A DNA stretch of 64,000 nt from Limnochordales bacterium (GTDB taxonomy: Bacteria > Bacillota > Limnochordia > Limnochordales > DUMU01). The notes below the pieces were generated by a model. The model ran no database searches. It was not told the DNA's origin and was given only the letters and a program-made list of their open reading frames with translations. Within the stretch, counting starts at the first letter, position 1, and every line of letters starts with the position of its first letter. The stretch is taken from contig JADBKP010000001.1 of assembly GCA_014896315.1 (NCBI GenBank), positions 201,557-265,556 of the forward strand, written 5' to 3'. Of this stretch, positions 7,483-23,486 are shown one piece after another. The translations under genes and the position numbers were made by a program.

Positions 7483-8238
7483 TCAAACAGCCACTTCGGA
7501 GCGCAACTTGACCTCAAGAGCTCCTCTTACCCAGCCATGCCCTGTTGACACCTTACCTCCTATTGAGCAGATGGATTTTAGCGGTTCCACTACGTATTTG
7601 TCGATTAATCGGTCGACGTGCCGTTCCTCGTGTGAGAGCTCCCGCAGCCACGAATCCGTGTTCGGCTCCAGGTGCTCACGTTCCCGGCCCAACGTCCATT
7701 TCCGCTGCTGGTCCTCTATGAGAATCCGCAGCACACCCCTGAACGTCGTCCCGGGAGGCATGACCTCAACGTTTCGGTTAAACCCGCGGTGAACGGCACT
7801 CGTGGCGCGGTCACGAGCCGCGGCATACGCAGGCTCGGGGTCCTTATCTGCCTCGAGGTAAGGTACCATGACGAAGCCCGGAAGACTCTGACATCCCAGG
7901 AAGTAGCAGGCAGGACATATTGGTCCTTTGCCATACTCGCAGGCACCACCCCTATAGACGCCTGCCCGGACTAACGTATGCTCATCAGCGCTTAACCGAC
8001 TGAACGGAAACGGAATGCACGGTCTGAAAACCGGATTACGTGCAGCTTGCTGAATGAGCAAACGCTCTAGTTGAGACCGCAACGCACCTTTTACCGATGT
8101 ACCAGGAATCACGGCCCTACCACCGATTCTTGCCACCGGACTATGGAACTCTGACATCGGATCCGGGGGGCCCCCCACGAAGAGGGGCTGATCGATAGTA
8201 AGCCATAGGTCGTACTCCCTGAACACCCTATCAGGCAT
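7483..8238 (-). CDS. cas7: Cas7-type RAMP protein (Csm3/Cmr4/Csf2-like backbone subunit)
   Basis: The track ORF is 7483..8349. The ATG at 8238 has GGAGG 9 nt upstream and overlaps the upstream stop (ATGCCTGA). 'RAVIPGTSVKGALRSQLE', 'ICPACYFLGC', 'ARDRATSAVHRGFNRNVEVMPPGTTFRG' and the glycine-rich 'IGGKVSTGHGW' follow the order of the canonical Cas7 RAMP motifs. Confidence 0.8.
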   Translation of the reverse strand: MPDRVFREYDLWLTIDQPLFVGGPPDPMSEFHSPVARIGGRAVIPGTSVKGALRSQLERLLIQQAARNPVFRPCIPFPFSRLSADEHTLVRAGVYRGGACEYGKGPICPACYFLGCQSLPGFVMVPYLEADKDPEPAYAAARDRATSAVHRGFNRNVEVMPPGTTFRGVLRILIEDQQRKWTLGREREHLEPNTDSWLRELSHEERHVDRLIDKYVVEPLKSICSIGGKVSTGHGWVRGALEVKLRSEVAV

Positions 8239-8536
8239 GATCCGAAACCTCCTCGCTGTAGTAATTCCGAATAGCTTCGAGCTTGGCCAGCACGTACCTA
8301 CCCTCAGCCCTCGTCGGGAGCTTCGAGACCAGATGCACAACCTGTACAAGTATCGTCAGGTCCTGAAGCCTTTCCTCATATAACTCATCTTCCCGCTTGC
8401 CCACCACAAATGCCTCTGCAGCTTCCGGTCCGTGAATCTCGTACAGCCGGGCTAAGTCACTAAGCAAGCCCCGGACCGCGAGTCCGCCCTTCTCGTCCGA
8501 GTTCAACTTTCTTACAAGGTCAATCAGGTCAGGCAT
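8231..8536 (-). CDS. Small helical protein in the position of a Cas11 small subunit
   Basis: The track ORF is 8231..8593. The ATG at 8536 has GGAAGG 5 nt upstream and lies 26 nt after the upstream stop. The protein is 101 aa with Leu/Glu/Arg-rich, helix-like composition. The assignment rests on size and position only, not on a sequence motif. Confidence 0.45.
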   Translation of the reverse strand: MPDLIDLVRKLNSDEKGGLAVRGLLSDLARLYEIHGPEAAEAFVVGKREDELYEERLQDLTILVQVVHLVSKLPTRAEGRYVLAKLEAIRNYYSEEVSDHA

Positions 8537-8562
8537 GACTACCTTCCATGCAGACTCCACCC

Positions 8563-9204
8563 CTAGATCCCTCCTTCGGGATGAACCAAACACCGGGGAC
8601 CGCGCACGACGCTGCCTTCAAACAGTGCGCGCACGTAAACACCTCCGACTCTATTTTCGTCCGGTTCAAATAGGTACCCCCAGACAGGCATAGCTACCTC
8701 AACTATTCCAAACTGTTCCAAAACATCTCCCCGTTCGGGCAACCGCACAAGCAGCGAACCCCAGCAACATTCGGCTTGATCCTCGGTCACCGGGCCAACA
8801 CGTTCCATGGTGCAGTATCCCAACCCCTTGCTTCGCAGGGCACCAACTTGAAGCGAGAAATGCTGAGGAAGGCAGGCTGCCCTGGGACCCGTGACAAAGG
8901 CTCGTGCTTTAACGTCCACCAAAAATGCATACTCAAGCGGCAAATAGGCTGAGCCCAACGCCCTATTACGTGTAGAAGCAGCCTGCCAGTACGGACCGGA
9001 GTATTCCTCAATTATTGCCACACCAGCAACTCCCTGTCCGAACTCTGCTGTCAGCGCGCCAGTAAGCTGCGAATACGGGATGGACCGTTCCAGGGTCCCG
9101 CGGAAGGTTCCCTTTTTTAGCCTCTCACCCAGGGAAAGCGTTTGAGCGTTAAGGATGTATTCTATAAGAATCGCCACCACCCCCCCGCACGCGGCTGCTT
9201 TCAC
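8563..9204 (-). CDS. Cas5-type RAMP protein (Csm4/Cmr3/Csf3-like), start uncertain
   Basis: The GTG at 9204 overlaps the upstream gene by 56 nt; GTGs at 9180 and 9177 are alternatives. 'RSIPYSQLTGALTAEFG' resembles the Cas5 N-terminal strand. A glycine-rich loop is present at 'LRSKGLGYC'. Confidence 0.55.
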   Translation of the reverse strand: MKAAACGGVVAILIEYILNAQTLSLGERLKKGTFRGTLERSIPYSQLTGALTAEFGQGVAGVAIIEEYSGPYWQAASTRNRALGSAYLPLEYAFLVDVKARAFVTGPRAACLPQHFSLQVGALRSKGLGYCTMERVGPVTEDQAECCWGSLLVRLPERGDVLEQFGIVEVAMPVWGYLFEPDENRVGGVYVRALFEGSVVRGPRCLVHPEGGI

Positions 9205-11377
9205 CGCTAAAAGTCAATTCGAGTAACGAAAGAACCTGGACAGGTCCGAAAAGTCCTTTTCTGATACCGTCGTCGAAGCGGTTGACCACCTCTTGCGCAG
9301 TTGCTCGGATAGGACCCGGCTCCTTGCTGTCTGCCTTGACAACCGCCCAAGCAAGATCAGGCAAGCCTGTCCGGCGCTCCACCTCAGCCAACTCGTGCAG
9401 GTAGCGCCGTACTCGTGGAGGCCGATCATCCATCCATTTGCCCATTCCGGTGATCAACGCTCGCAACCCAGGGAGGTCGGTTTCGAATCTAAAGGACCTG
9501 ATACCTCGTACAGCAACCGCATGCGAAGGGTCGGAAACGTGCCGCCAGTCCACGTAGAACGGCCATTTGGCAGGGCCGTAGCTGACTCCCAGTCTGACTG
9601 CCTTCGCTGCTTCCGCTAAGAGGCCAGACCGCCAATGGTGCTCAAGTAGGACCGGAAAGTGCTGCTTCATCAGGTCAACGTAGCTCCTGAGCAACTGCAG
9701 GAGCTGCCGCTTTTCTGCGAGTTCGGCAATCCAGACGCCTTCGGCGAGTTCCACTACATGGCTGAAGATTCGCCGTACGGCTTCACCGAGCGCCGTAATC
9801 GTCCGCGCGAACTCGTCGTGCATGTCCCGAAGAATTCCCAGCGGCCGGAATTGTGACAGCACCGGTATGAGTTTCTCGTTCTGCTTAGGGGCCATCCCTA
9901 CGAAGAGCACTCCATCAATCACCCTTTGCCCGTACAGAGCTTCGACTAGAAGCTCTGCCCGGCGTGGATCCAGAGAAGCACAGATCCAGCACGCCAGGCT
10001 GTCGCGCTCCTCCCACTGCCTCAGATCAGCCTGCCGGAAACCACGATCTCGCAGTTCCCAGCAGCGGTTGCACAGGTTCTCGGTTACCGTCGCCACCCTC
10101 TGCGGGATTCCACGCCGCACCTGGCACACATCACAGAGCGGGGGTTCAATCTCGACTGTGGAGTCAACCTCAGGCGGGTAGAACGAACTATACGAGTCAG
10201 GTGTAGTAGTCCGCGGTACGGGCGCATCAGACTCGAGTTCCCGGAGGGCCCTCAGCTTCTTATCCAGTCGCCCGACTTCTGGACCGACCTCACGCTTCCG
10301 CCCAGGGGGAGTCCCAGGATGGTCAAGCAACGCCTTAATGTGATCTCGACGCTTTTGTAGCTTTGCTGACGCCGCTCGGATCAGCTCGCGGTGGACATCC
10401 CCCGAACGGGGAGACCGCCACAGCTGCAGGGAGCTAGGCGGAGCTTCACGTGTGTGTGCTTCGGCGTAAAACCCGCGATCTGTCAGAGGTTTCAGAATGC
10501 CTCGCAGGCTCAGCGCCGAGCTGGGCAAGAAGAGATACAGGGTCGTTCCTGTGCGAAATAGCAGGTACGGCGACTCAAAGTCGTCGAGTGCATCACGCAA
10601 CTCTCGGAGGACTGCTACATCCATAGCCCGCGCAAAGGACTGATGGAATTTGACAGTCACACGCGCTATGCGTAACTTCCATCTCTTGGAGGCGTCCTCG
10701 TGGTTTCGCACCTCCACGCCGTCAAGGGCCAAGGAGAGACCTTCGTGGCTGGTCCGTACCTCAACATGTTTCTCCAGTGCCCGGTAGTATTGGCCCGTGA
10801 GTGTGCAGTGCGCCCACAAGGAGGTTACCTGGTTCGGCCAGGCTTCGTCTTCGCCCCGAGCACGGAAGTTGTCTGCTAGACTCTCTAACACTGCGCTAGC
10901 CGAACTCTTCTCCCACAGCGTGAACAACTCTTCTAAGTCTGCAGGCGTCTTGATCGGCTCGGGATCTTCATGCGCAGGTTCATTCCTCCAAACCGCAAAC
11001 ACACTCTTGCTCCAAAGATTTCTCCACTCGTTCGCCTGGGGACCCTCGTAAACTGCTCTGACAGTTGTCGCGGCAAGGTTGTCGGCTAAGCACACTAGGA
11101 ATAGGGCCTTACGCTCTTCTGGACCGATCCAATGGTGAGGAGCAGGCCGGGCAAGATCCCTCACCCAGTCACTCCAATCGGCCAGTTTCATGTGATATAT
11201 GACTGATGCCCAAGTTAAATCTCGCTCGACTATCTCTGGGATCAGAATTCCAGGCATAAACTTTCCTGAGCGGTAAAAACTATGTTTTTGGCCGCGTAGA
11301 CAGTCTGCCGCCAGCTTCCCGAGGTCATGTAACTCGGGGATGATCATGCTTGTCACCTCGCTATTCTCTACAGCCAC
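9149..11377 (-). CDS. cas10: Cas10-like large subunit with N-terminal HD domain and degenerate cyclase palm
   Basis: 742 aa; the GTG at 11377 follows GGGGAG. HD motif 'IIPELHDLGKLA' plus 'LVCLADNLAAT'. 'VTSLWAHCTLTGQYYRAL' resembles the Cas10 palm-1 entry. Cys pairs 'CDVCQ' and 'CNRCW' are present. 'LACWICASLDPRRAELL' resembles the first palm-2 Asp strand. Where GGDD is expected I read 'VELAEGVWIAE'. The only GGD is 'GGGGDS', 7 residues from the C-terminus. Confidence 0.75.
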   Translation of the reverse strand: MAVENSEVTSMIIPELHDLGKLAADCLRGQKHSFYRSGKFMPGILIPEIVERDLTWASVIYHMKLADWSDWVRDLARPAPHHWIGPEERKALFLVCLADNLAATTVRAVYEGPQANEWRNLWSKSVFAVWRNEPAHEDPEPIKTPADLEELFTLWEKSSASAVLESLADNFRARGEDEAWPNQVTSLWAHCTLTGQYYRALEKHVEVRTSHEGLSLALDGVEVRNHEDASKRWKLRIARVTVKFHQSFARAMDVAVLRELRDALDDFESPYLLFRTGTTLYLFLPSSALSLRGILKPLTDRGFYAEAHTREAPPSSLQLWRSPRSGDVHRELIRAASAKLQKRRDHIKALLDHPGTPPGRKREVGPEVGRLDKKLRALRELESDAPVPRTTTPDSYSSFYPPEVDSTVEIEPPLCDVCQVRRGIPQRVATVTENLCNRCWELRDRGFRQADLRQWEERDSLACWICASLDPRRAELLVEALYGQRVIDGVLFVGMAPKQNEKLIPVLSQFRPLGILRDMHDEFARTITALGEAVRRIFSHVVELAEGVWIAELAEKRQLLQLLRSYVDLMKQHFPVLLEHHWRSGLLAEAAKAVRLGVSYGPAKWPFYVDWRHVSDPSHAVAVRGIRSFRFETDLPGLRALITGMGKWMDDRPPRVRRYLHELAEVERRTGLPDLAWAVVKADSKEPGPIRATAQEVVNRFDDGIRKGLFGPVQVLSLLELTFSGESSRVRGGGGDSYRIHP

Positions 11378-11503: not shown

Positions 11504-11839
11504 TTGGGTAGAGTCCTGTTGGGAGGATTGACAGTGACTCGGACCCGATACGAACCAGACTTCAAGCTGCGGGTAGTCCGCGAAGCGTTGGAGACACGCA
11601 ATGCATCCCTGGTCGCACGACGCCACAATCTCGCTCCTAACCTGGTAGCGCGTTGGGTTCGGCAGTATGGCGCTGATGGGGAGGCCGCGTTTTCTGCCAA
11701 GCGTCGCCGTTCGCAAGTGGAGACCCCCGAGTTGAGGGACATCCAGCGGGAAAACGAGCAGCTCAAGAAGCTACTGGGCGAGAAAGACCTCGAGATCGCC
11801 ATTCTCCGTGACCTTCTAAAAAAAACAGCCCGACCCTGA
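11504..11839 (+). CDS. IS3-family transposase OrfA (HTH / leucine-zipper part)
   Basis: 'YEPDFKLRVVREALE', 'LVARWVRQY' and the coiled-coil tail 'ENEQLKKLLGEKDLEIAILRDLLKK' are typical of IS3 OrfA. Confidence 0.85.
   Translation: MGRVLLGGLTVTRTRYEPDFKLRVVREALETRNASLVARRHNLAPNLVARWVRQYGADGEAAFSAKRRRSQVETPELRDIQRENEQLKKLLGEKDLEIAILRDLLKKTARP
11818..11825 (+). promoter_or_regulatory. Programmed -1 ribosomal frameshift site (A8 run) linking orfA to orfB
   Basis: The A8 run lies at the end of orfA. orfA is in phase 2 and orfB in phase 1, which is a -1 relationship, as in IS3-family OrfAB fusions. Confidence 0.7.
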
Positions 11840-11853
11840 GGGATCGGCTGGAG

Positions 11854-12186
11854 GTGGCGGAGAAATGGATTCAAAGGGGGTACCCCATCGCCGTGGTTCT
11901 TCGCATAGTGGGGGTCGCCCGGTCGACGTATTATGCTCATCGTCATCCCAAACGGCCCAAGAGCCCACGAAAAGGGGGAAGGCCGAAGCCAGGGTATTCG
12001 TGGACCACGGCAGGAAAGCGAGTACCCGATGAGCAAATCCAAGAGTGGCTATGCGAACTCATCGCTGGGGAAGAGGCCTGCTATGGCTACCGCAAGCTGA
12101 CTGTGGTGCTCAGGCGCCGGTACGGGCTGATAATCAATCACAAGAAGGTCTATCGGCTTTGCCGCGAACTGCGGTTGCTGCGGCCG
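11854..12186 (+). pseudogene. IS3-family transposase OrfB, 5' portion (interrupted by IS21 insertion)
   Basis: 'HKKVYRLCRELRLLRP' is followed directly by IS21 terminal sequence. The reading frame resumes at 14417. Confidence 0.8.
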
Positions 12187-12292
12187 TGTCAACGCCGGCT
12201 TGAAATTGACCCACTACGCGCCGGTTTGGAATTGACCCACCCCCGAGAAAGCAGTCCTACAGTGCGTAGCACCAAGGGACGCCGGACACCGG

Positions 12293-13087
12293 TTACTGTT
12301 TCTCCGCTCTCACCCCCTCTGTGGATGGTGGCGCTATGCCGAAGATGCCGGCCCGCTTCTTTTCCCGTAGCCGGTAGCTTTCACCCCGGATGTTGAGCAC
12401 GTGGCTGTGGTGAAGCAACCGATCGAGAATGGCAGTGGCAATGACCGGATCCCCCAGCACCTCGCCCCACTCACCGAAGCCTTTGTTCGACGTGAGGATG
12501 ATGCTGCCGCGCTCGTACCGCGCGGAGATGAGCGCAAACAGGGCGGTTGCAGCCGACCGATCGTAAGGCCAGACACCGAATTCATCGATGATAAGCACCT
12601 TAGGCGCCAGATAAACCCGCATGCGGCGGTCAAGACGGTGCTCTTCCTGGGCCCGGCGCAGATCTTCGAGCAGGTCGTATGCCCGAGCGAAGTAGACCGC
12701 GTGACCGGCCTCGATCGCCTTGATACCCAAAGCGACCGCCAGATGGGTCTTGCCCACTCCGGGTGGGCCCAGCAGGAGGATGTTGGCGCTCTCGGCCACA
12801 AACGCCAGGGAGGCCAGCTCGCGCACCTGACGCTCATCGATGGAAGGCTGGAAGCTGAAGTCGAACTGTTCCAATGTCCGGTGAAAGGGCAGGTGCGCCA
12901 GGCGAGTTCTGGTACGCAAGTAGCGCTCCCGGCGTGCAGGTGCTTCGATCTCCATAAGGTCAGCAAGGAAGTCAGCGTAAGGCAGTTCCTTTTGGGCCGC
13001 TACTTCCAGACGGCTTTCCAGTACGGACGCTGCTTGTGCCAGCCCCAGTTGCTCCAAGTACGAGCGGGCCTTCTCCAGCGCAATCAT
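12293..13087 (-). CDS. istB: IS21-family helper ATPase IstB
   Basis: 264 aa with Walker A 'LLLGPPGVGKTHLAVALG' and 'LLIIDEFG'. It overlaps the istA end, as is typical. Confidence 0.9.
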   Translation of the reverse strand: MIALEKARSYLEQLGLAQAASVLESRLEVAAQKELPYADFLADLMEIEAPARRERYLRTRTRLAHLPFHRTLEQFDFSFQPSIDERQVRELASLAFVAESANILLLGPPGVGKTHLAVALGIKAIEAGHAVYFARAYDLLEDLRRAQEEHRLDRRMRVYLAPKVLIIDEFGVWPYDRSAATALFALISARYERGSIILTSNKGFGEWGEVLGDPVIATAILDRLLHHSHVLNIRGESYRLREKKRAGIFGIAPPSTEGVRAEKQ

Positions 13088-14374
13088 TCGTTTCTCACCG
13101 TCCCAATCAGCGACTCATAAACCGCCAGGGGACGCTGCGCCACCTCGACCGAGCTCACCTGGAAAGCCACCGGTTCCCGCCGGCGATTGTCGCCGGCTGT
13201 CGGCACCTCAGCCCATTGAGCGGGATGGGTGAATCGCTGCCCGGGTCGGGTAGCCCTGGGGTACACGGCCAACAGGCGGTCGCCTGTCCACAACTGGATG
13301 ATCTCAGCCCCCGGTTGCACCTCGACTCTTTCCCCGGGCTTCCACGGCCAGGGTACACCGTACCAGGACCCGTCCCACTGTACGTATCCATCTCGTCCCA
13401 CTGCCCGACTCTCCCGCAGGAAAGGTTGCAGGCGTTCCCGACCGGGTAAGGGCTGCAAATGATGCCGCTCAACCGCCAGCCTGTCTATCGGTCGCTCACG
13501 GGTGGTACCGTGGATACGGACGTTTGCCACTGTATCGCTCCAGAGCAGTGCTTGCCGGTTCAAGTCGTCGAGGTCCGTGAAACGAATACCCGGCCAGAAG
13601 TTTCCCTTGACGTACTTGATTCCGCTTTCCACACGTCCCTTGGTCTGCGGTCTGTAAGGATGGCAGAGCTGTACGTTGAATCCCATCCGCAGCGAGAAGT
13701 CCAGAAAGCGAGGGTTCCAGACCGGCCGACCGGCATCGTCTGTTTCCAGCGCCACCAGTTTCGTTCGGTCGTAGAGGCACTTCTCCGGTACGCCGCCAAT
13801 GGCAGCGCATGAAGGTAGGAGTATCAGCCCGGTTAACAAACTCCACGTAGATAGCTCTTGACCAGCTCAGTACCATGGTGAAGTACCACTTTCGCTACAC
13901 CGTGCCGTGTGGGAACACCACCGCACAACTGCCGAAATCGACCTGAGCTTACTCACCCGGGCGGGTTTCGAAACGAACGGTCACTTTGGGCTGGTGTTGA
14001 TGCCGCAATGGTTGGACGAAGTCCTTGAGTATCGTATAGCCGCCCGTATATCCGCAGGCGCGGAGTTCCCGCAGGAGAACCTTGCAGTTCGTCACTCCCT
14101 CCGCCCATCGTTGCATGATAAACTCCTTGTAGGGATCCAGCTTCGAGGGTCTCTTCTGTCGAGGAGCTGGCCTGGGCACTTCTGGGGCCCTCAAATACTT
14201 GCGAACCGTGTTACGCGAGATTCCCAAGGTCCTGGCGATGGCTCGGATGGAGTACCCCTCGCCTTTGAATTCATAGAGCTTTTTCACTTTCCCGCCTCCC
14301 AGCACGACAGTTTCGACACCTCCGACTCGTGGTGGAATCGGCGGTGTCTTTCGCTGGGGGCGGGTCATTTTCAT
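13084..14374 (-). pseudogene. istA: IS21-family transposase IstA, inactivated
   Basis: The N-terminal HTH ORF (13949..14374) ends at a TAA inside the conserved 'PGE*AQVDFG'. A second in-frame TAG follows ('PHGTV*'). A frameshift near 13800 joins to the C-terminal ORF 13084..13839 ('GGVPEKCLYDRTKLV', 'YRPQTKGRVE'). Confidence 0.8.
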
Positions 14375-14416: not shown

Positions 14417-15004
14417 CAGCGTCCCAAGAAACCCCACCATCCCCGGCGGCTGGCTCGTAACCGGCTGGTTACTGGGCCTAACCAGCTATGGGAAGTCGAC
14501 GTCAAATACGGGTACATAGCAGGGGAGGAGCGGTTCTTCTTCGTGATGCCTATCCTGGACGTGTACGACCGCTCGGTGGTGGAGTTTCACATTGGCCTGA
14601 CTTGTCAGGCGGAAGAGGCGGCCAACGCGCTCAGAGAAGCAGTGCGCCGACGCAAACCGGAGTGGGAGGACACCAAACCAGTGGTCCGAACCGACAAAGG
14701 GCCACAATTCATTAGCCAGCTGTTTGAGGAGACGTGTGAGCAATTAGGGCTGGAACACGAACGGATACCGAATGCAACCCCCAACAAGAACGCCCACATC
14801 GAAGCGTTCAACGGGATCATGGAGGAGGAATGCCTAGCCCGCAACGAATTCCATACCTTTGCGGAAGCATATCTGACAGTGATCGACTTCATCGACTTCT
14901 ACAACGAGCGTAGGTTACACTCCGCCCTGGGGTATCGTAGCCCTCAGGAGTTCCGGGAAGCATACCGGCAGAATCATACGCGACTCGCCCCGGTCAAGGC
15001 ATAG
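14417..15004 (+). pseudogene. IS3-family transposase OrfB, 3' (DDE/rve) portion
   Basis: My translation from 14417 reads 'QRPKKPHHPRRLARNRLVTGPNQLWEVDVKYGYIAGEERFFFVMPILDVYDRSVVEF', then 'RTDKGPQFIS' and 'NAHIEAFNGIMEEE'. It is in frame with 11854..12186 once the IS21 is removed. Confidence 0.8.
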
Positions 15005-15841: not shown

Positions 15842-16408
15842 TCACGCGGTCCTCCCAGCCAACTCATCAAAGGCCTGGTACAGTGATATACACCGTACGC
15901 CGAACGCCCAAGCGACAAAAGGTATGCGCACCGGGCCAACGATCTTTTTCTTGACCCTATCGTATCCGGGAATGGTGTGCTTTTCCAACGTGACCAGTGT
16001 GGCCTTGTGGGTTTTGGCCAGAGCAACGAACATCGGATCTTCTCCTCGCAAGAAGGTGTCATCTTGCTGAACCTCGAAGTTATTCAACACAAACTGGCAT
16101 ATATCAGCTACGTAAGAAAAAGTGTTCGGAGTAGGACTAAGGATTTGGATTAGCCCTTGCCTCTCAAGGGCTTGAAGCAACTGGCTTACCCGGTCCTTCT
16201 TTACTTTGAGCTCTCTGATAAGTCCATCGGATCCTACCAGCTGACCACTCCTGAAGCCTTGAATGAACCACTCTTCAAGCCACTTGCTGGCCTGAGCAGC
16301 GCTCCTGCCGATGGAAGGGTACCGCGAGCGCAGTCCCAGCGCTAAGCTGGGTAGTACTCCGCCGTAAAAAGAAGTGATAAGAACGTTTGAGTCAATAAGA
16401 TACTTCAC
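15842..16408 (-). CDS. PIN-like protein (DUF4411-like), putative toxin/nuclease partner of the ImmA-like gene
   Basis: The track ORF is 15842..16435. The GTG at 16408 follows GGAGAAG by 7 nt and overlaps the upstream stop by 17 nt. The N-terminus 'VKYLIDSNVLI' is the PIN-type first acidic strand. Confidence 0.65.
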   Translation of the reverse strand: MKYLIDSNVLITSFYGGVLPSLALGLRSRYPSIGRSAAQASKWLEEWFIQGFRSGQLVGSDGLIRELKVKKDRVSQLLQALERQGLIQILSPTPNTFSYVADICQFVLNNFEVQQDDTFLRGEDPMFVALAKTHKATLVTLEKHTIPGYDRVKKKIVGPVRIPFVAWAFGVRCISLYQAFDELAGRTA

Positions 16409-17540
16409 TGCTACGCTTCTCCAAGTAAGCAACAAAAGCTCCCAGGCTTATGTTCAACAAAGATGCTGCCTCTTTAAAGGTGAGTTCGCCCTCAATAGTA
16501 GCGGCGACTACCGCGTTTGTGAAAGTAGGGCTATTCCAAGCTGCGAGGTTGTGATCGAAATTGCCACTGGAACTTTTGCGTTTTTGCTTTCCAAGACCTT
16601 TGTAGTACTCTCCCACCAGGTTCTGGTATTCCTCGCGGGAAATGAGCCCAAGGTCATGGGCTCGACGCGCAGCAACCCATACACTCACCCAGAACCGCCT
16701 GGCCACGTTTTGTGCGGCTTCCCTCGGGTCTGAGCTCCACATGCGGCGAAGCTGTTGCTCCGGGACTAAGAGCTCCGCGGCAACTCGGTCGCAAAACTTT
16801 TCCAACTCGGGGTCGGGTTCGAGCTCGTGATTGTCGTCCAAAGCGCTTTGTCCAACCCAGATATGGGCAAGCTCATGGGCAAAGGTGAAGTTGCGCCGGG
16901 CCTGATAATCCCTCATGTTGACCAGAATGATCGGGGCCACCGGGTCGGCAATGGCGAAACCCGAGAACTCGGTCGGATCCAGGGGGAGATGGGTGTTGCT
17001 CCCCACAATGCCCCTACGAAGGACTAGAATCCCTATCTCTTCGGCTCGCTTGCTCAGCTTGCGCAGGAAGTCATCCCAGTCTTCAGCCTCCACGCGGATT
17101 GCTTGCACAGGGATGTAGCTACGGATTGCGTCCGCCACCTCTTCCGGTGCGGCTTCCTGCCAGTCGACACTTCCGACAAAGGCAAGTGGACGATTCCCCC
17201 GGTACTCCCGCCACCAGTCTCGCTTTCGCAGGGCGTCGTAGATGGTTTCGGTCAGTTCGAGGCTGGGCTCTTTCGGAGCATCAGCCCTCCTGCGCAGGTC
17301 CGGAATGGGAATCTCCACCCGGGCTGGTGGAGGAAGAAGAAGCTGGCCGAAGGAGACCCTGAGCCTTTGCGCGATCTTCTGGGCCTGCCGGTACGTCGGG
17401 CGCGCCTTGCCTCCGATCCAGGCATGAACTCTCTCTACGCTAGCCCCCGCGGCTCTAGCCAAGTCGTCAGGGTCCAACCTTGCGCGCCGCAGTGCCCACG
17501 CCAGGGTCTCAGGATTGATAGGCACTTCCAGGGTGGGCAT
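16392..17540 (-). CDS. HTH + ImmA/IrrE-family zinc metallopeptidase
   Basis: The track ORF runs to 17594. The ATG at 17540 follows GGGAGGTG. The N-terminal XRE-like HTH region includes 'LARAAGASVERVHAWIGG'. The peptidase motif is 'FAHELAHIW' (HEXXH). Confidence 0.8.
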   Translation of the reverse strand: MPTLEVPINPETLAWALRRARLDPDDLARAAGASVERVHAWIGGKARPTYRQAQKIAQRLRVSFGQLLLPPPARVEIPIPDLRRRADAPKEPSLELTETIYDALRKRDWWREYRGNRPLAFVGSVDWQEAAPEEVADAIRSYIPVQAIRVEAEDWDDFLRKLSKRAEEIGILVLRRGIVGSNTHLPLDPTEFSGFAIADPVAPIILVNMRDYQARRNFTFAHELAHIWVGQSALDDNHELEPDPELEKFCDRVAAELLVPEQQLRRMWSSDPREAAQNVARRFWVSVWVAARRAHDLGLISREEYQNLVGEYYKGLGKQKRKSSSGNFDHNLAAWNSPTFTNAVVAATIEGELTFKEAASLLNISLGAFVAYLEKRSSEVSY

Positions 17541-17793
17541 GGCCGTCACACCTCCCACAACCAAGTTCGGCAATACACCGTCAGCTGGAGACAAGTGTGA
17601 GCACTCTTGCCACTGCAGACGCGCGACGACCGGAGGAAAATCTTCACGTCAGTGATGTTGATTACCTTCCGGCTTGCCATTCGTATGCCGACTCTATACT
17701 TCCATTATGCAGCATAAGGACTGTGGTAAACTGGTGCCTTGCAACTTGAGGCATCTGTGTCTGGTGGGGGCTCTCGGAAGATCCCGGAAAATG

Positions 17794-18465
17794 CTACTCG
17801 TAATGGTCAGCGCTGCTAGGTGCAGCTTCGGCACGGGCGACGACCTCGTCCAGGGCCGGCTCTTCGCGGCCCACGGCCAGCAGCAGCGCCCGGACCTTGA
17901 CCGGCTGGGCCGAGGCCGCCACGCCCGCCAACAGCCTCAGCCCATGCTCCAGCCACCCCACACCCACGCCCCCGCCCGCCCGCACCCGGAGCTTGACAAT
18001 GTCCTTGTGCGGGGTGGGTTCGACCGTTTCGCCCTCGGTGTGCAGTTCCTCGAAAAGCCGTTCACCGGGGCGGATGCCGGTGAACTCGATCTTGATGTCC
18101 ACGTCCGGTTCAAGGCCGCTGAGGCGGATCATCTCCCGGGCCAGGTCCAGAATGCGGATCGGCTGGCCCATCCGCAGGACGTAGATCTCGCCACCTTCCC
18201 CCATCGCCCCCGCCTGCAACACCAGCTAAACCGCCTCCGGAATGGTCATGAAATACCGCTTCATCTCCGGGTGCGTGACGGTGACCGGCCCGCCGGCGGC
18301 AATCTGCCGCTTGAAAATCGGTATGACACTGCCCCGGCTGCCGAGGACATTGCCAAAGCGCACGGCGACAAACCGGGTACGGACCGGACGTCGGTCTACT
18401 CCGTCACCGCCACCGCAGACTCCGTCAGCCCCAACGGACCTATCCAAGCCGGCGACATGCGCCAA
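17794..18465 (-). pseudogene. CapD-like dehydratase fragment (C-terminal half only, in-frame stop)
   Basis: Two ORFs are colinear with the C-terminal half of 22344..23486. '[45 protein letters not shown]' is identical in both. They are split by a TAG at 18223-18225 where the intact copy has CAG. The NAD-binding N-terminal half is absent. Confidence 0.85.
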
Positions 18466-18667: not shown

Positions 18668-19887
18668 CTAACAGCCGTGCATCGACGTAGAACGCAAAAT
18701 ATTGAGAATCCGCCCGCTGGCATGTCCGTCGCCGAAGGGGTTGTTGGCGCCGCCGGCACTGGCCATCTCCTCGTGCCGCCGGGGATCGGTCAACAGTGCG
18801 AGTGCTTCTTCCCGGATGCGGGCACGGTCTGTTCCAACCAGGCGGGCGGTGCCCGCCTCCACCGCTTCCTGTCGCTCCGTCTCCTCACGCAGAACCAGCA
18901 TCGATTTGCGCAGGGCAGGCGCCTCTTCCTGCACACCGCCGGAGTCAGACAGCACAAGCGTCGCTTCTTGCAACGCGTGGACGAACTCCTTATAGTCCAG
19001 AGGATCCGTCAGCTTCACTCGCGAGTGCGATCCCAGGATACGACTGGCTGCTTCTCGCACTATCGGATTGCGGTGGCAAGGAAAGAGCACCCAGAAGTCG
19101 GGCAAAGCCTCAATAACTCAATAATGTCGAGGATGGCGTGATAGACCTGTTCCAGAGGTTGCCCCCAGTTCTCCCGGCGGTCGGTGGTGACCAGCAGCAT
19201 CCGGGAAGCTGCCTGCCGACCCAAGCCTGCACTTGCTGGCGATGGTGTCGGCTTTTTGGTGTCAGGATTTGCGGTCAGTTCAGATTAGGCGGCAGCCTCG
19301 ACACCAGCTAAACTTGCTTGGCTCTGCAGCGACAGAACCGCGTAAAGTGCATCAATAGCCGTATTACCCGTCACGTGAACTGTCTCCGCGGGAACTCCCT
19401 CCGCCAGGAGATTGGCGGCGACCCTCTTCGTCGGGGCAAAATGAACTGCCGCGAGGCGCGTGATGAGCCGGCGGTTGGCCTCCTCCGGAAAGGGGGAATA
19501 GATGGAACTGGTACGCAACCCGGCCCCCACGTGGGCCACTGGGACGCGAGCGTAGAAGCCGGCCAGAGCCCCCACAAAGGCCGTGGTCGTATCTCCCTGC
19601 ACGATCACCCAGTCCGGCTTTTCCTTGGCCAGCACCGGCTCCAAACCCAGCAACACTCGGGATGTAAGGCTGCTCAGGCTCTGCTGCGGCCGCATGACGT
19701 TCAGGTCATAGTCAGGACGTACGTCAAAAAGCTTTAAAACCTGGTCCAGCATCTCACGGTGCTGTGCTGTGGCCACTACGACAGGATCAAAGTCGCAGCT
19801 CTTCTTCATTGCGATGATTACCGGCGCCAGCTTAATAGCCTCGGGTCGAGTGCCTACTACGATCAGGCAGCGTCGTGTTTTACTTAT
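18668..19887 (-). pseudogene. Disrupted copy of the WecB-type 2-epimerase paralog
   Basis: ORFs 18668..19105 and 19285..19809 match the C- and N-terminal parts of 2503..3777 but lie in different frames. The initiator position reads ATA (19885-19887) instead of ATG. The linker region is shorter and lacks the hexanucleotide array. Confidence 0.85.
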
Positions 19888-20068: not shown

Positions 20069-20797
20069 TCACGCAAAGAGCTCGTCGAGATCGTCTCGAC
20101 CCAAGATGCCTATGTCCCCGAACCCGTACTTCTGCAGACACAATCGCAACGGCTCGCAATCTTCATCAAGACCTGTCAAAAACACTCGGCTGGCAAAGCC
20201 CCTGGCCTCGGCTTGCCGAGCAGTCTTTACCATGAAGTCAAGTTTGCTGAGGGTGTCACTCTTCCAGGTAGATATCGGCTGGTCACACGACAGAAAGTTC
20301 CTGACCCGGACCTTGCATTCATGACCCTCAAAGCGCTTGGCCCCCAGAAAAGCCGCATCGAATGTTGATTCGGAGTCTACCAGGGATCGGGTATGATTCT
20401 GATCCAGGCGCTCGTGTAAAGAGCACTGATACTCCCTGCGTAAGCATGTGCAATTACGAAATGGTCTCGCAAATGGTCCCATCTGGTAGATTAGGAATTC
20501 TAGAAACCTTCCTCTCGGTTCAAGTCTCGAGGAAGCTATGCTGTAAAGTTTCTCAAGCATTGTCCACAAGATACCTACGTCGCGCGACGAACGAGATCCA
20601 GGAGGCAAGTGTATTTTCACCAAGAGTTTGAATTTCTCCTCGCGCAAGCCGCTATTGTAAGACGTCAATACCTCACGCAAATAATCCGCAACGATGGGCC
20701 AATACTCGGCATGGAGAATCAGAAATTCAGTGAGCTTCCTTACTGGAGGAGGGTATCCGTAGGTCTTTTTCGCCCGTACCAACTCTAGCTCTGCCAT
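20069..20797 (-). CDS. Hypothetical protein (242 aa), possible PD-(D/E)xK nuclease fold
   Basis: The track ORF runs to 20893 but overlaps the upstream gene. The ATG at 20797 lies 5 nt after the upstream stop. 'STFDAAFLGAKRFEGHECKVRV' resembles a D..ExK core. No other motif is recognisable. Confidence 0.55.
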   Translation of the reverse strand: MAELELVRAKKTYGYPPPVRKLTEFLILHAEYWPIVADYLREVLTSYNSGLREEKFKLLVKIHLPPGSRSSRDVGILWTMLEKLYSIASSRLEPRGRFLEFLIYQMGPFARPFRNCTCLRREYQCSLHERLDQNHTRSLVDSESTFDAAFLGAKRFEGHECKVRVRNFLSCDQPISTWKSDTLSKLDFMVKTARQAEARGFASRVFLTGLDEDCEPLRLCLQKYGFGDIGILGRDDLDELFA

Positions 20798-20802
20798 TAG
20801 GG

Positions 20803-21237
20803 TCACCGTGTAATCTTGAGCGTGGGCAATATGAGAGGCGACAAGCCCATTTTCGCTGTCATGGTAGCCACGGTCTCCCGTATGAAGGGCCAAACGTTTA
20901 TGGGGACATTGCGGTCCAAAAACTCACGTATCAACTCCTCGCTTGGCTCGAGCTCTGCCTGCGACAGAACATATATCAGATGATATGTCAGCTTGATAGA
21001 TAGATCAGGAGTCGGCTTCTCTTCTTTTTGCTTTTCCTGATTCTTCGGAAAGGCATCTAGAGAGAATTCCGCTCTCGCGGCAAACTCCCTTTCAGAAAAG
21101 GACTCTAGCCCAACGCTGAACTCGTATTTTATCTGTAGAGGCGGCCGAAGATTGAGCTCGCGATGATGGCTGAGATCAGTGAGCGCTATGGCCTTAAGCT
21201 CTACTGCTCGGACGAGCTTGTTGTATTCCTCTGTCAC
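20803..21237 (-). CDS. SecB-like chaperone family protein
   Basis: 144 aa; the GTG at 21237 lies 7 nt after AAGGAGGTG. The C-terminal 'RNVPINVWPFIRETVATMTAKMGLSPLILPTLK' resembles the conserved SecB segment (LfPY-Re..pp..LpP.nF). Size and beta-rich N-terminus are compatible. Confidence 0.6.
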   Translation of the reverse strand: MTEEYNKLVRAVELKAIALTDLSHHRELNLRPPLQIKYEFSVGLESFSEREFAARAEFSLDAFPKNQEKQKEEKPTPDLSIKLTYHLIYVLSQAELEPSEELIREFLDRNVPINVWPFIRETVATMTAKMGLSPLILPTLKITR

Positions 21238-21265
21238 AACTATTCACCTCCTTGGCCACCAGTGT

Positions 21266-21298
21266 GAAAATAAACCCCGGCAAGGTCATTTGCCGGGG
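21266..21298 (-). terminator. Rho-independent terminator after the 228-aa gene
   Basis: The minus strand reads CCCCGGCAA-ATGACC-TTGCCGGGG followed by TTTATTTTC, a 9-bp perfect stem. It lies about 60 nt downstream of the stop at 21357. Confidence 0.8.
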
Positions 21299-21356
21299 CT
21301 CAGGCAGCACGCCTCGGATAGGCGACCTGCATCCACTCTTCAAAGTTGCCCCGAAC

Positions 21357-22043
21357 CTAGGCGGCTACCAGGTAGCGACTGCCTTCGCAACCACTGGGGA
21401 CACATAGACCGCTGAGGTCGTAATCCATCCAGTTCGAGGGCAACTTGGGTGGGTCCAATCGTTGGTTCTGAAGCCAGGCACTGACAAATGGCTCGACCAG
21501 CTTGCGCGTATCGGCATGGTCCACCCTTACCTCCACAACTGGCTGCCCCTGGAATCGCTTGAATGCGCGCCGGAGCGAGGGAAGGATTCCCCGTGCCCAG
21601 TCAAGAATGACATCCCACTCTTCTGGGGTTTGCAGGCTCTTGTGCGAAACCTCTACAAGCTGCTCCGCAGCCTGCAGCGCCTCCGCCATTTCCTTTTGAT
21701 CACAGGGAGGGGCATTCTTGATTCTGGAGCGAAGCTCGCGGTAAATCTCCATGCCACCCGTTTCCAGCCATCGCTCTGCCCACCCAACCCACTGCAGGCG
21801 AGCATCATCGTTCATAGCTGTCACATGCTCCCTGTAGATCTCCAGCTCCACGCGGATGCGCTCCCATAGGCGGTCGAGCGCTTGCAGAGCGGGCCGAGCG
21901 CTAGCAGGAGGCAGAAACTCCCAGGACAGGGTAGAGGAATCAGCATCCGATTGCCATGCTTCCGGGTGTACCAGAGTCACGACCGGTCCTCCTCCCCACT
22001 GCCATCCACCGCTCACCGAGTACACTACAGATTCGCCAGGCAT
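21357..22043 (-). CDS. Hypothetical protein (228 aa)
   Basis: The track ORF runs to 22076. The ATG at 22043 lies 8 nt after GGGAGGG. No recognisable motif. It has its own terminator. Confidence 0.55.
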   Translation of the reverse strand: MPGESVVYSVSGGWQWGGGPVVTLVHPEAWQSDADSSTLSWEFLPPASARPALQALDRLWERIRVELEIYREHVTAMNDDARLQWVGWAERWLETGGMEIYRELRSRIKNAPPCDQKEMAEALQAAEQLVEVSHKSLQTPEEWDVILDWARGILPSLRRAFKRFQGQPVVEVRVDHADTRKLVEPFVSAWLQNQRLDPPKLPSNWMDYDLSGLCVPSGCEGSRYLVAA

Positions 22044-22343
22044 GCCGGGATCCCTCCCGGCACATACTATTCCCACCGAATTCTGGGTTATTCTGGCAAG
22101 TCGGCGTTACGTGCAGTGCAATATTGTCTTTTACCACACTCGGGGCGTTGGGGCAACGTTGAGATCTCAGCTTTTGACAGCCGAAAACCCATCTGCCATC
22201 CGGTCCGTGATCGCCCCTCGGCCAACTTCTCCACGTCAGTGGCGTCGGCGAGCAGGTCAAGTTTCACGACGAACGAGTCCGGGCGCCGCTCCCGCACGTC
22301 CCCGTACGCGAGAAGACCCACTCATGGCTGGACTTGCTGCCCC

Positions 22344-23486
22344 TCAGACTCTTTCGTCCGCCGATGCCGCTTCTGCCTGAGACAAGACCCGGTCCAAGGC
22401 AGGCTCTTCGCGGCCCATGGCCAGCAGCAAAGCACGGACCTTTCCCTGCTCGCCCGAGGCCACGGCCTCCGCCAACAGCCTCAGCCCGTGCTCGAGCCAC
22501 GCCACATCCACGCCCTCGCCCTGCCGCACCCGCAGCTTGACAATGTCCTTGTGCGGGGTGGGCTCGACTGTTTCAACGTCCGTGTGCAGCTCCTCGAAAA
22601 GGCGCTCCCCGGGCCTAATCCCGGTAAACTCGATCTTGATGTCCACGTCCGGTTCAAGGCCGCTCAGGCGGATCATCTCCCGGGCCAGGTCAACGATCCG
22701 GATCGGCTGGCCCATCCGCAGGACGTAGATCTCGCCGCCCTCTCCCATCGCCCCGGCCTGCAACACGAGCTGAACCGCCTCCGGAATGGTCATGAAATAC
22801 CGCTTCATCTCCGGGTGAGTGACGGTGACCGGCCCGCCGGCGGCAATCTGCCGCTTAAAAATCGGTATGACACTGCCCCGGCTGCCGAGGACATTGCCAA
22901 AGCGCACGGCGACAAACCGGGTACGAACCGGACGGCCCACGGCCAGGCTCCCCCGGCTCATCGCCTGAATGATCATCTCCGCCACCCGCTTGGAAGCCCC
23001 CATGCAGTTCACCGGGTTAACCGCCTTGTCGGTGCTGATGAGGACGAACCGTTCCGCCCCGACCTCCGCCGCCGCCCGGGCCACGTTCAACGTTCCAAAG
23101 ATGCTGTTGGTGACCGCCTCATCCGGATTCTCCTCCATCAGCGGCACATGCTTGTGGGCGGCGGCATGGAAGACGATCTGGGGCCGCCACTCACCAAACA
23201 CCCGCCGCATCTTCGCCCCGTCCCGGATATCCGCAATGCAGTCCACAGTCTCCAGCCCGGGGAACTTCTCCTTCAACTCGCCCTGAATCGCGAAGATGCT
23301 GTTTTCCCCGTGCCCGAGAAGGATCAGCCGCCGCGGGCCAAACCCGGCCACCTGCCGGCAAAGCTCGGAGCCGATCGAACCACCTGCTCCCGTTACCAGC
23401 ACCGTCCGGCCCCGCAGGTACCGGGCGACCCCTCCGGTATCGATGAACAGGGTGGTTGATGTCCTCGTCAATCCGGTTGAACCCAT
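22344..23486 (-). CDS. CapD/WbpM/PglF-type nucleotide-sugar 4,6-dehydratase/epimerase (soluble short form)
   Basis: 380 aa with the NAD-binding motif 'VLVTGAGGSIGSELCRQ' and 'VLISTDKAVNP'. It lacks the N-terminal membrane domain of long CapD forms. Confidence 0.85.
   Translation of the reverse strand: MGSTGLTRTSTTLFIDTGGVARYLRGRTVLVTGAGGSIGSELCRQVAGFGPRRLILLGHGENSIFAIQGELKEKFPGLETVDCIADIRDGAKMRRVFGEWRPQIVFHAAAHKHVPLMEENPDEAVTNSIFGTLNVARAAAEVGAERFVLISTDKAVNPVNCMGASKRVAEMIIQAMSRGSLAVGRPVRTRFVAVRFGNVLGSRGSVIPIFKRQIAAGGPVTVTHPEMKRYFMTIPEAVQLVLQAGAMGEGGEIYVLRMGQPIRIVDLAREMIRLSGLEPDVDIKIEFTGIRPGERLFEELHTDVETVEPTPHKDIVKLRVRQGEGVDVAWLEHGLRLLAEAVASGEQGKVRALLLAMGREEPALDRVLSQAEAASADERV

Follow-up and report, generated by a model that had tools for sequence, protein, structure and literature searches.

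A SecB-like chaperone between a degron-tailed protein and a nuclease-like protein: a possible antitoxin–chaperone–toxin cassette in Bacillota chromosomes and Clostridioides difficile phages

A stretch of 64,000 nucleotides from a Limnochordales bacterium (contig JADBKP010000001.1, positions 201,557 to 265,556; hereafter the window) encodes on its minus strand a 144-aa protein resembling the chaperone SecB, followed after 5 nt by a 242-aa protein with a nuclease-like motif. SecB-type export is not the norm in Bacillota, which is established knowledge (Sala et al. 2013), and the question raised by this locus is what such a chaperone serves there and with which partners it works. SecB-like chaperones are also found in toxin–antitoxin–chaperone (TAC) systems, which consist of a classical toxin–antitoxin (TA) pair followed by a chaperone gene (Mets et al.). 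The original prediction had described the two genes as a self-contained chaperone–nuclease unit, lacking an antitoxin-like gene and set apart from the upstream gene by a strong terminator. Given its anatomy, its synteny, the fold and motifs of its proteins and a tail with a putative degron, we lean, with modest confidence, towards reading the locus as a TAC-like cassette of three genes in the order antitoxin (X)–chaperone (C)–toxin (Y). Its features in the window, in the direction of transcription, are the following.

21357..22043, minus strand: X, a 228-aa putative chaperone-addicted antitoxin, with homologs at the same position in all chromosomal loci and an AlphaFold2 (AF2) model.
21360..21545, minus strand: C-terminal tail of X (residues 167-228), a putative chaperone-addiction (ChAD) region with a ClpX-type degron, ending -LVAA.
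21268..21302, minus strand: hairpin found by RNA folding, with a 13-bp GC-rich stem and a 6-nt loop, followed by a U-tract.
21245..21253, minus strand: AAGGAGGTG, the ribosome-binding site of C, 7 nt before the GTG start, as read from the sequence.
20803..21237, minus strand: C, a 144-aa SecB-like chaperone of the TAC type according to family-library and profile matches, with a GTG start.
20069..20797, minus strand: Y, a 242-aa putative PD-(D/E)xK nuclease toxin according to its AF2 model and Foldseek, with an ATG start.
20498..20500, minus strand: E100 of Y, an acidic helix residue that is nearly invariant in the alignment.
20312..20362, minus strand: predicted catalytic motif of Y, 'FDAAFLGAKRFEGHECK' (D147 … E160-C-K162), with D147, E160 and K162 invariant in the alignment.

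The two open reading frames (ORFs) of the original prediction, their coordinates, the 5-nt gap, the AAGGAGGTG site and the peptide blocks quoted from both proteins ('VPINVWPFIRETV..GLSPLILPTLK' in C and 'FDAAFLG..FEGHECKV' in Y) were all confirmed on the minus strand. The TGA stop of C occupies 20805..20803 and is followed by 5 nt and the ATG of Y; some gene callers give an alternative start, a GTG overlapping the stop of C, which yields a 245-aa form (P0001). For X, the ORF as listed opens at a GTG at 22076, and the start aligned with the homologs is the ATG at 22043 (228 aa). Because all three proteins are conserved to about 27-33% identity across independent lineages, X, C and Y are real genes, and chance ORFs are excluded. 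The X–C–Y module has a GC content of 0.48-0.53 vs 0.58-0.66 in its flanks.

To see in which company C and Y occur, we compared the contigs of Y homologs and of X homologs and the loci from genome and metagenome scans, each of them scanned with hidden Markov models (HMMs) of X, C and Y. The order X–C–Y appeared in every locus with enough flank, in about seven chromosomal lineages (the window with L013, L009, L001/L016, L005/L021, L011, L019 and the decayed L017) and three phage lineages (the phiCD119 type, L028 and L036). The chromosomal X homologs are 209-228 aa long and always located upstream of C; two contigs (L020 and L022) show C–Y alone, but both end short upstream. C and Y are tightly coupled and syntenic in every locus, so that the predicted partnership of the two genes holds, and the junction of only 1-5 nt between them in all lineages suggests translational coupling. 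What we reject is a unit of these two genes only, since X co-occurs with them wherever the flank suffices. Nor is the proposed absence of an antitoxin-like gene supported: X appears to bear the hallmarks of a chaperone-addicted antitoxin, though it is positioned upstream of C and not between C and Y. The arrangement had also been called non-canonical in comparison with TAC systems, and the order X–C–Y bears this out.

The terminator that was supposed to separate the upstream gene deserves a closer look. RNA folding revealed a stem at 21302..21271 followed by UUUU, between the stop of X and the ribosome-binding site of C, and the hairpin with its T-tract is thus real; a consensus terminator scan of the window did not list it. 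Its role as an operon boundary did not stand, since the hairpin recurs inside the cassette in six of the seven chromosomal lineages examined (strong and GC-rich in the window, L013, L001, L019, L005 and L011, weak or absent in L009) and leaves no space for a promoter before C. In the window, L011 and L019, the stem is trailed by a T-rich stretch. The hairpin is only about 17 nt away from the ribosome-binding site of C, and the sole promoter-like match in the spacer overlaps that site and was judged implausible; in the phage versions, the entire gap between the upstream gene (X′) and C is 17 nt. Its recurrence, together with a distance too short for a separate promoter, marks the supposed terminator as a recurrent internal element, which probably either acts as a leaky terminator or attenuator or stabilises the RNA. 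The simplest reading would be partial termination, yielding more X than C–Y.

C itself turned out to be closer to the chaperones of TAC systems than to export SecB. Its best match in the defence library was the PADLOC model PD-T4-9_C (5.1e-07), representing the chaperone CmdC of CmdTAC (PD-T4-9), a toxin–antitoxin–chaperone anti-phage system of E. coli (Vassallo 2022; Nature 2024, PMC11618068; Mets 2024), and it matched phrog_20189 over its full length (4e-13). Matches to SecB itself were present at low scores, namely 23.8 bits vs an equivalog cutoff of 143 for NCBIfam SecB (3.2e-05) and 19.3 bits vs a gathering score of 26 for Pfam SecB (1.1e-03). The C homologs of four other lineages showed the same pattern, with SecB HMM matches in all lineages. 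Using a profile of seven C members, the best match among solved structures was Rv1957, the TAC chaperone of M. tuberculosis (E 1.2e-04, 108 of 147 profile positions). Phage-borne relatives, tied to the C profile at E 3.5e-20, reach the gathering score of Pfam SecB (30.8, 27.8 and 26.2 bits), while remaining at 34.3 vs 102.8 bits with respect to the equivalog cutoff of housekeeping SecB. The matches of C stop at about position 126-128 of the 141 positions of the SecB profile, a few residues short of the C-terminus, which follows directly on the core domain; C thus shows neither the equivalog score of housekeeping SecB nor the C-terminal helix and tail for SecA binding. Judged by these matches, C is a divergent member of the SecB superfamily that belongs with the TAC chaperones rather than with export SecB, and the SecB-like identity assigned to the 144-aa protein is supported, with TAC chaperones as its nearest kin. 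A profile comparison with a single E. coli SecB sequence was weak, covering the FPYARE block only, and was not relied on.

X revealed no match in Pfam, NCBIfam, PHROG, PADLOC or the PDB sequences, and its core retrieved only generic helical bundles in Foldseek, so that an identity as a known antitoxin or a helix-turn-helix (HTH) protein was rejected. Its AF2 model, based on a shallow alignment of five sequences, displays a helical core at residues 45-166 (pLDDT 82-91), flanked by residues 1-44 and 167-228 with a pLDDT of 25-37 in the same shallow alignment; the C-terminal 62 residues are predicted to be disordered. This tail varies in sequence and length between the lineages and contains two to seven aromatic residues in every one of them (Trp, Phe and Tyr in the window). 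The last two residues are -AA or -VA in all X and X′ proteins; among the chromosomal ones the endings are VAA, HAA, IAA and AVA, and that of L001 ends in -VA. In TAC antitoxins, a chaperone-addiction element, reported to be disordered and C-terminal, is recognised via aromatic residues, and CmdA ends with Ala-Ala and M. tuberculosis HigA1 with Val-Ala, both functional ClpX degrons whose change to Asp-Asp abolishes the instability (Mets et al. 2024). A terminal degron is not universal among TAC antitoxins, as the HigA of E. coli is without one. X also lies directly upstream of the chaperone, as do the antitoxins of canonical TACs, and in a TAC of canonical order in E. coli phage PhiR70_1 the middle gene, preceding the chaperone, ends in -RVA. 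Taken together, the predicted anatomy of X is the one diagnostic of antitoxins addicted to a chaperone, and we would predict, by analogy, that it is bound by the chaperone and neutralises the toxin. X and the phage X′ show no detectable homology (hhalign probability 0.5%), and the X position is the fastest-evolving of the three, which parallels the wide antitoxin variation reported among CmdTAC homologs.

Y likewise found no match in Pfam, NCBIfam, PADLOC, PHROGs or the PDB sequences. A word-indexed search of 5.8 billion proteins yielded six clusters of its family, and an exhaustive profile search yielded 141 representatives at 50% identity, mostly full-length and of 220-250 aa; none of the 61 members tested contained a Pfam domain. 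Among 61 diverse relatives, D147, E160 and K162 are the only invariant residues, followed by the nearly invariant R95, E100, C161 and K185, and the D…ExK motif is also kept in the set of 141 representatives. In the AF2 model (pLDDT 81.8, pTM 0.77), an N-terminal helical domain precedes a C-terminal αβββαβ nuclease-like domain with the elements H94-106, E126-141, E148-151, E155-161, H180-198 and E202-208, giving the layout helix(E100)–β–β(D147)–β(E160-x-K162)–helix(K185)–β. Foldseek against the PDB retrieved Card1, Cdn1, McrC, Nt.BspD6I, BstEII, Can2 and BsoBI, all of the restriction-endonuclease fold, with a best E of 5.9e-05 and probabilities of 0.99-1.00, but low global TM-scores; against a viral library it retrieved a protein of phage phiCD119 as well as Mrr-type and PD-(D/E)xK proteins. 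At the level of fold and motif (AF2, Foldseek and the invariant D147/E160/K162), the earlier PD-(D/E)xK assignment is supported, and Y would be expected to act as a nuclease.

A chaperone-addiction-like segment had been suspected at the C-terminus of this partner protein. The end of Y is a folded helix (pLDDT about 90, falling to 79 and 58 over the final blocks) whose last residues vary across the wider family, and a ChAD or degron on Y was therefore rejected; it is X in which such a segment is predicted. Among 185,579 species genomes, Y occurred in only two Bacillota metagenome-assembled genomes (MAGs), and with the window protein as query Y was absent from the plasmids of PLSDB. Scanning IMG/VR with Y patterns gave no matches, while a scan with the C alignment did find contigs.

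It was through C that the phage-borne relatives came to light. A tblastn search with C led to gp38 of Clostridioides difficile phage phiCD119, named "protein-export chaperone SecB" in RefSeq. The genes gp37-gp38-gp39-gp40 of this phage sit right after the holin and endolysin (lysis) genes; gp37 encodes 197 aa with an aromatic and acidic tail ending in DDYALAA, and a frameshift divides a Y-family protein into gp39, its N-terminal half (E 1.9e-16), and gp40, its C-terminal half (E 7.9e-30). In C. difficile phage-plasmids, Y is intact and has 234 aa, and the proteins of such an intact cassette are WP_021371073, WP_011861052 and WP_011861053. The IMG/VR scan with the C alignment yielded ten viral contigs, in all ten of which Y lies directly downstream of C and an ORF of 198-222 aa (X′) ending in ALAA, YLAA or CIAA lies upstream. 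The phiCD119 SecB had been classed as solitary and grouped with the Rv1957 community of TAC chaperones (Sala et al. 2013), and an ancestral role with respect to the TAC chaperones has been proposed for this "solitary" protein.

Some of these cassettes are decayed, and Y is inactivated in each of them. In phiCD119 (L023 3416-4121), the frameshift is located in the conserved RGRFLE region; a mistake in the 2006 sequence would be another explanation. In two IMG/VR contigs (L030/L031, 4416-4853), Y is replaced just before the HECK motif, with the loss of ExK. In a Bacillota MAG (L017 2162-3435), a deletion extends from the 3′ part of C into the 5′ part of Y, so that this cassette, situated inside a polysaccharide locus, has an intact X (ending TVAA), about 40 residues of C and a truncated Y. 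X or X′ keeps an intact degron tail in all three cases, and three independent events in which Y decayed and X was retained fit toxin–antidote logic, with Y as the toxic partner; with three cases, we regard this asymmetry as suggestive.

Distant relatives of C, with about 30% identity, were also observed on a Thermus plasmid (L024 2345-2887) and on pMP1 of D. radiodurans (L025 1635-2995). The Thermus match lies inside a gene annotated as an HTH-domain protein, directly after another HTH regulator, and the one on pMP1 lies downstream of a HicA toxin; both loci look like canonical TAC or antitoxin–chaperone arrangements.

How might such a cassette work? By analogy with known TACs, Y would be a PD-(D/E)xK-type nuclease that is harmful when free, and X would bind and neutralise it, probably via its helical core. 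X would be unstable unless C binds its degron tail and shields it from aggregation and from ClpXP. Once C is drawn away, X would be degraded and Y freed to cut nucleic acid, be it DNA or RNA, leading to growth arrest or aborted infection. In known TACs, the competitor for the chaperone is a phage capsid or tail protein, and for C the precedents of CmdTAC and HigBAC suggest that this role would fall to an abundant structural protein of the phage. The hairpin and U-tract after X would ensure that more X is made than C and Y, whose translation would be coupled by the 5-nt junction. Toxicity, the binding of X to Y and of C to the tail, the trigger and the substrate are all part of this prediction.

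The closest of these systems is CmdTAC. Both are three-gene operons with a SecB-like chaperone and both are carried on prophages or genomic islands; CmdA has N-terminal helices, a long unstructured C-terminus and a terminal Ala-Ala needed for its ClpXP-dependent instability, a layout also predicted for X, and the antitoxin sequence is highly variable among otherwise homologous systems. In contrast, the order is T–A–C there and X(A)–C–Y(T) here, CmdT is an mRNA ADP-ribosyltransferase whereas Y is PD-(D/E)xK nuclease-like, and X is about twice as long as CmdA. Neither X nor Y matched the PD-T4-9_A and PD-T4-9_B models at E≤1, only the C component matching CmdTAC. HigBA1–Rv1957 of M. tuberculosis resembles the cassette in that Rv1957 is the best solved-structure match of C and the ChAD of HigA1 ends in a Val-Ala ClpX degron. 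The HigBAC, MqsRAC, HicAB-SecB and M. tuberculosis TAC systems differ by their RNase toxins (HigB, MqsR, HicA), their HTH antitoxins and their toxin–antitoxin–chaperone order. X and Y fall outside the type II families known from TACs (HigBA, MqsRA, HicAB, CmdTA), and the canonical order with the chaperone in last place is found in none of the loci, all being X–C–Y, with the adjacency of antitoxin and chaperone kept.

The gp38 of phiCD119 is a true homolog of C with the same flanking genes; it was described as solitary, whereas here it is placed between the degron-tailed gp37 and a Y-family nuclease-like gene. As for the nuclease side, Y shares its core fold and the D…ExK signature with Card1, Can2, Cdn1, McrC, Mrr-type proteins and restriction enzymes, but lacks the CARF, SAVED or GTPase partner domains of such effectors, and its N-terminal helical domain is unrelated. 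In the literature searched, we found neither a chaperone and degron-tailed protein controlling PD-(D/E)xK nucleases nor a description of the X–C–Y architecture. We therefore raise, at somewhat less than an even chance, the idea of an unrecognised TAC class with the order antitoxin–chaperone–toxin, a new antitoxin type, a PD-(D/E)xK nuclease as toxin and a SecB-like phage sensor, found in the chromosomes of Bacillota as well as in temperate phages and phage-plasmids of C. difficile, which would also explain the "solitary" SecB of phiCD119.

Other explanations of the same genes have to be weighed. That C directly holds or folds a nuclease-like Y, without any antitoxin and with an unrelated gene upstream, is encouraged by the linkage between C and Y, the tightest in the cassette at 1-5 nt in all lineages, by the U-tract hairpin between X and C, and by the two contigs showing C–Y only, whose upstream parts are cut off. 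Against it, X or X′ is located upstream in every adequately flanked locus, the hairpin recurs within the cassette (in six of seven chromosomal lineages) and sits about 17 nt from the ribosome-binding site of C, the phages leave a gap of 17 nt between X′ and C, and a disordered client-like tail is predicted on X and not on Y, all of which makes such a pair improbable. Even further from what we observed is a general or export-type SecB, or a general phage chaperone, with coincidental neighbours, the view implied by the RefSeq name of the phiCD119 homolog and by its classification as solitary (Sala et al. 2013). Scores far below the equivalog cutoffs and a protein ending right after the core domain speak against it, as does the origin of the organism-labelled relatives, namely Bacillota MAGs or C. 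difficile elements, in which export through SecB is not usual; moreover, the strict synteny with X and Y over about ten lineages rules out coincidence, and we give this view hardly any credence.

A three-part nuclease system of a non-TA kind is a more serious competitor, in which X would be a sensor, adaptor or regulatory subunit, C would aid the assembly or folding of X and/or Y, and a ligand or invading DNA would activate the complex. X is unlike known antitoxins and has no DNA-binding domain, which weighs against its being an antitoxin; the hypervariability of the X position is also what one expects of a specificity or sensor subunit, and the fold matches of Y include effectors with separate sensor domains (Card1, Can2, Cdn1). 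Yet it is difficult to account for an AA/VA degron being kept on a predicted-disordered tail of which nothing else is conserved, unless it serves regulated proteolysis, and the selective decay of Y with retention of X fits toxin–antidote logic, so that we consider a sensor role of X unlikely. Lastly, the same parts might be selected for keeping a mobile element, as a plasmid or prophage addiction or superinfection-exclusion module, in line with their occurrence in C. difficile phage-plasmids and the temperate phage phiCD119 and with the setting of the window copy, a low-GC insert between duplicated fragments of genes. Such a module is compatible with an antitoxin–chaperone–toxin cassette, its mechanism being identical and only the selective benefit different; but chromosomal copies lie beside Wadjet, ImmA/IrrE–DUF4411 and Abi-type genes, and experimentally tested TACs do defend against phage, and element maintenance as the selected benefit appears to us rather unlikely, a little more so than the sensor role.

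If the antitoxin–chaperone–toxin reading is true, several consequences would follow. TACs are a recently validated form of anti-phage immunity in which the chaperone doubles as a sensor of phage structural proteins, and those described in the literature consulted are ordered toxin–antitoxin–chaperone and use RNase or ADP-ribosyltransferase toxins targeting translation; the chaperone-addiction principle would then also govern a nuclease of the restriction-enzyme fold. The operon layout would be flexible, meaning that surveys demanding the chaperone as third gene miss such systems, and about 140 uncharacterised protein clusters of the Y family would gain a testable function. The "solitary" SecB of phiCD119 would be reinterpreted as part of a full system, which bears on prophage-encoded immunity and phage-plasmid stability in a human pathogen.

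With regard to its surroundings, the cassette of the window has a Polysacc_synt_2 (capD-like) gene, which is intact, on one side and a UDP-GlcNAc 2-epimerase gene, which is broken, on the other. The former has its 3′ part duplicated (17842-18390 vs 22386-22934, 549 bp, 90% identity), and the two copies bracket X–C–Y together with the UDP-GlcNAc 2-epimerase gene (18668-19809, broken into two ORFs). The L001 cassette is similarly bracketed by two fragments like the 3′ end of a DegT-type aminotransferase gene, and the L017 cassette follows an intact one. The cassette may enter polysaccharide-biosynthesis loci via recombination carrying or duplicating the 3′ end of the target gene.

In the L005-L008 contigs, of a lineage represented on about 100 contigs, the cassette is located immediately upstream of a complete Wadjet (JetABCD) operon (e.g., L005 4868-10717), and other relatives lie near Abi_C and AAA+/S8-protease genes or in polysaccharide loci. 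In the window (15842-17594, minus strand), a gene for an HTH and Peptidase_M78 protein (ImmA/IrrE-type, 400 aa) overlaps a DUF4411 gene (197 aa), a pair that looks like a separate TA- or defence-like two-gene module; a similar HTH–M78 gene is found near the cassette in L001. With this pair, insertion sequence (IS) elements and a RAMP gene nearby, the description of the neighbourhood as defence-rich is a fair one. The RAMP-superfamily protein (288 aa) adjoins two proteins of 742 aa and 213 aa without Pfam matches (7483-11377, minus strand), and this cluster may belong to an effector complex of a type III CRISPR-like or related kind. Between 11504 and 15004, the translations suggest the insertion of an IS21-type element, with an IstB-like ATPase at 12293-13087 and IstA-like ORFs at 13084-14374, into an IS3-type transposase, the pieces of which are located at 11504-12396 and 14543-15004.

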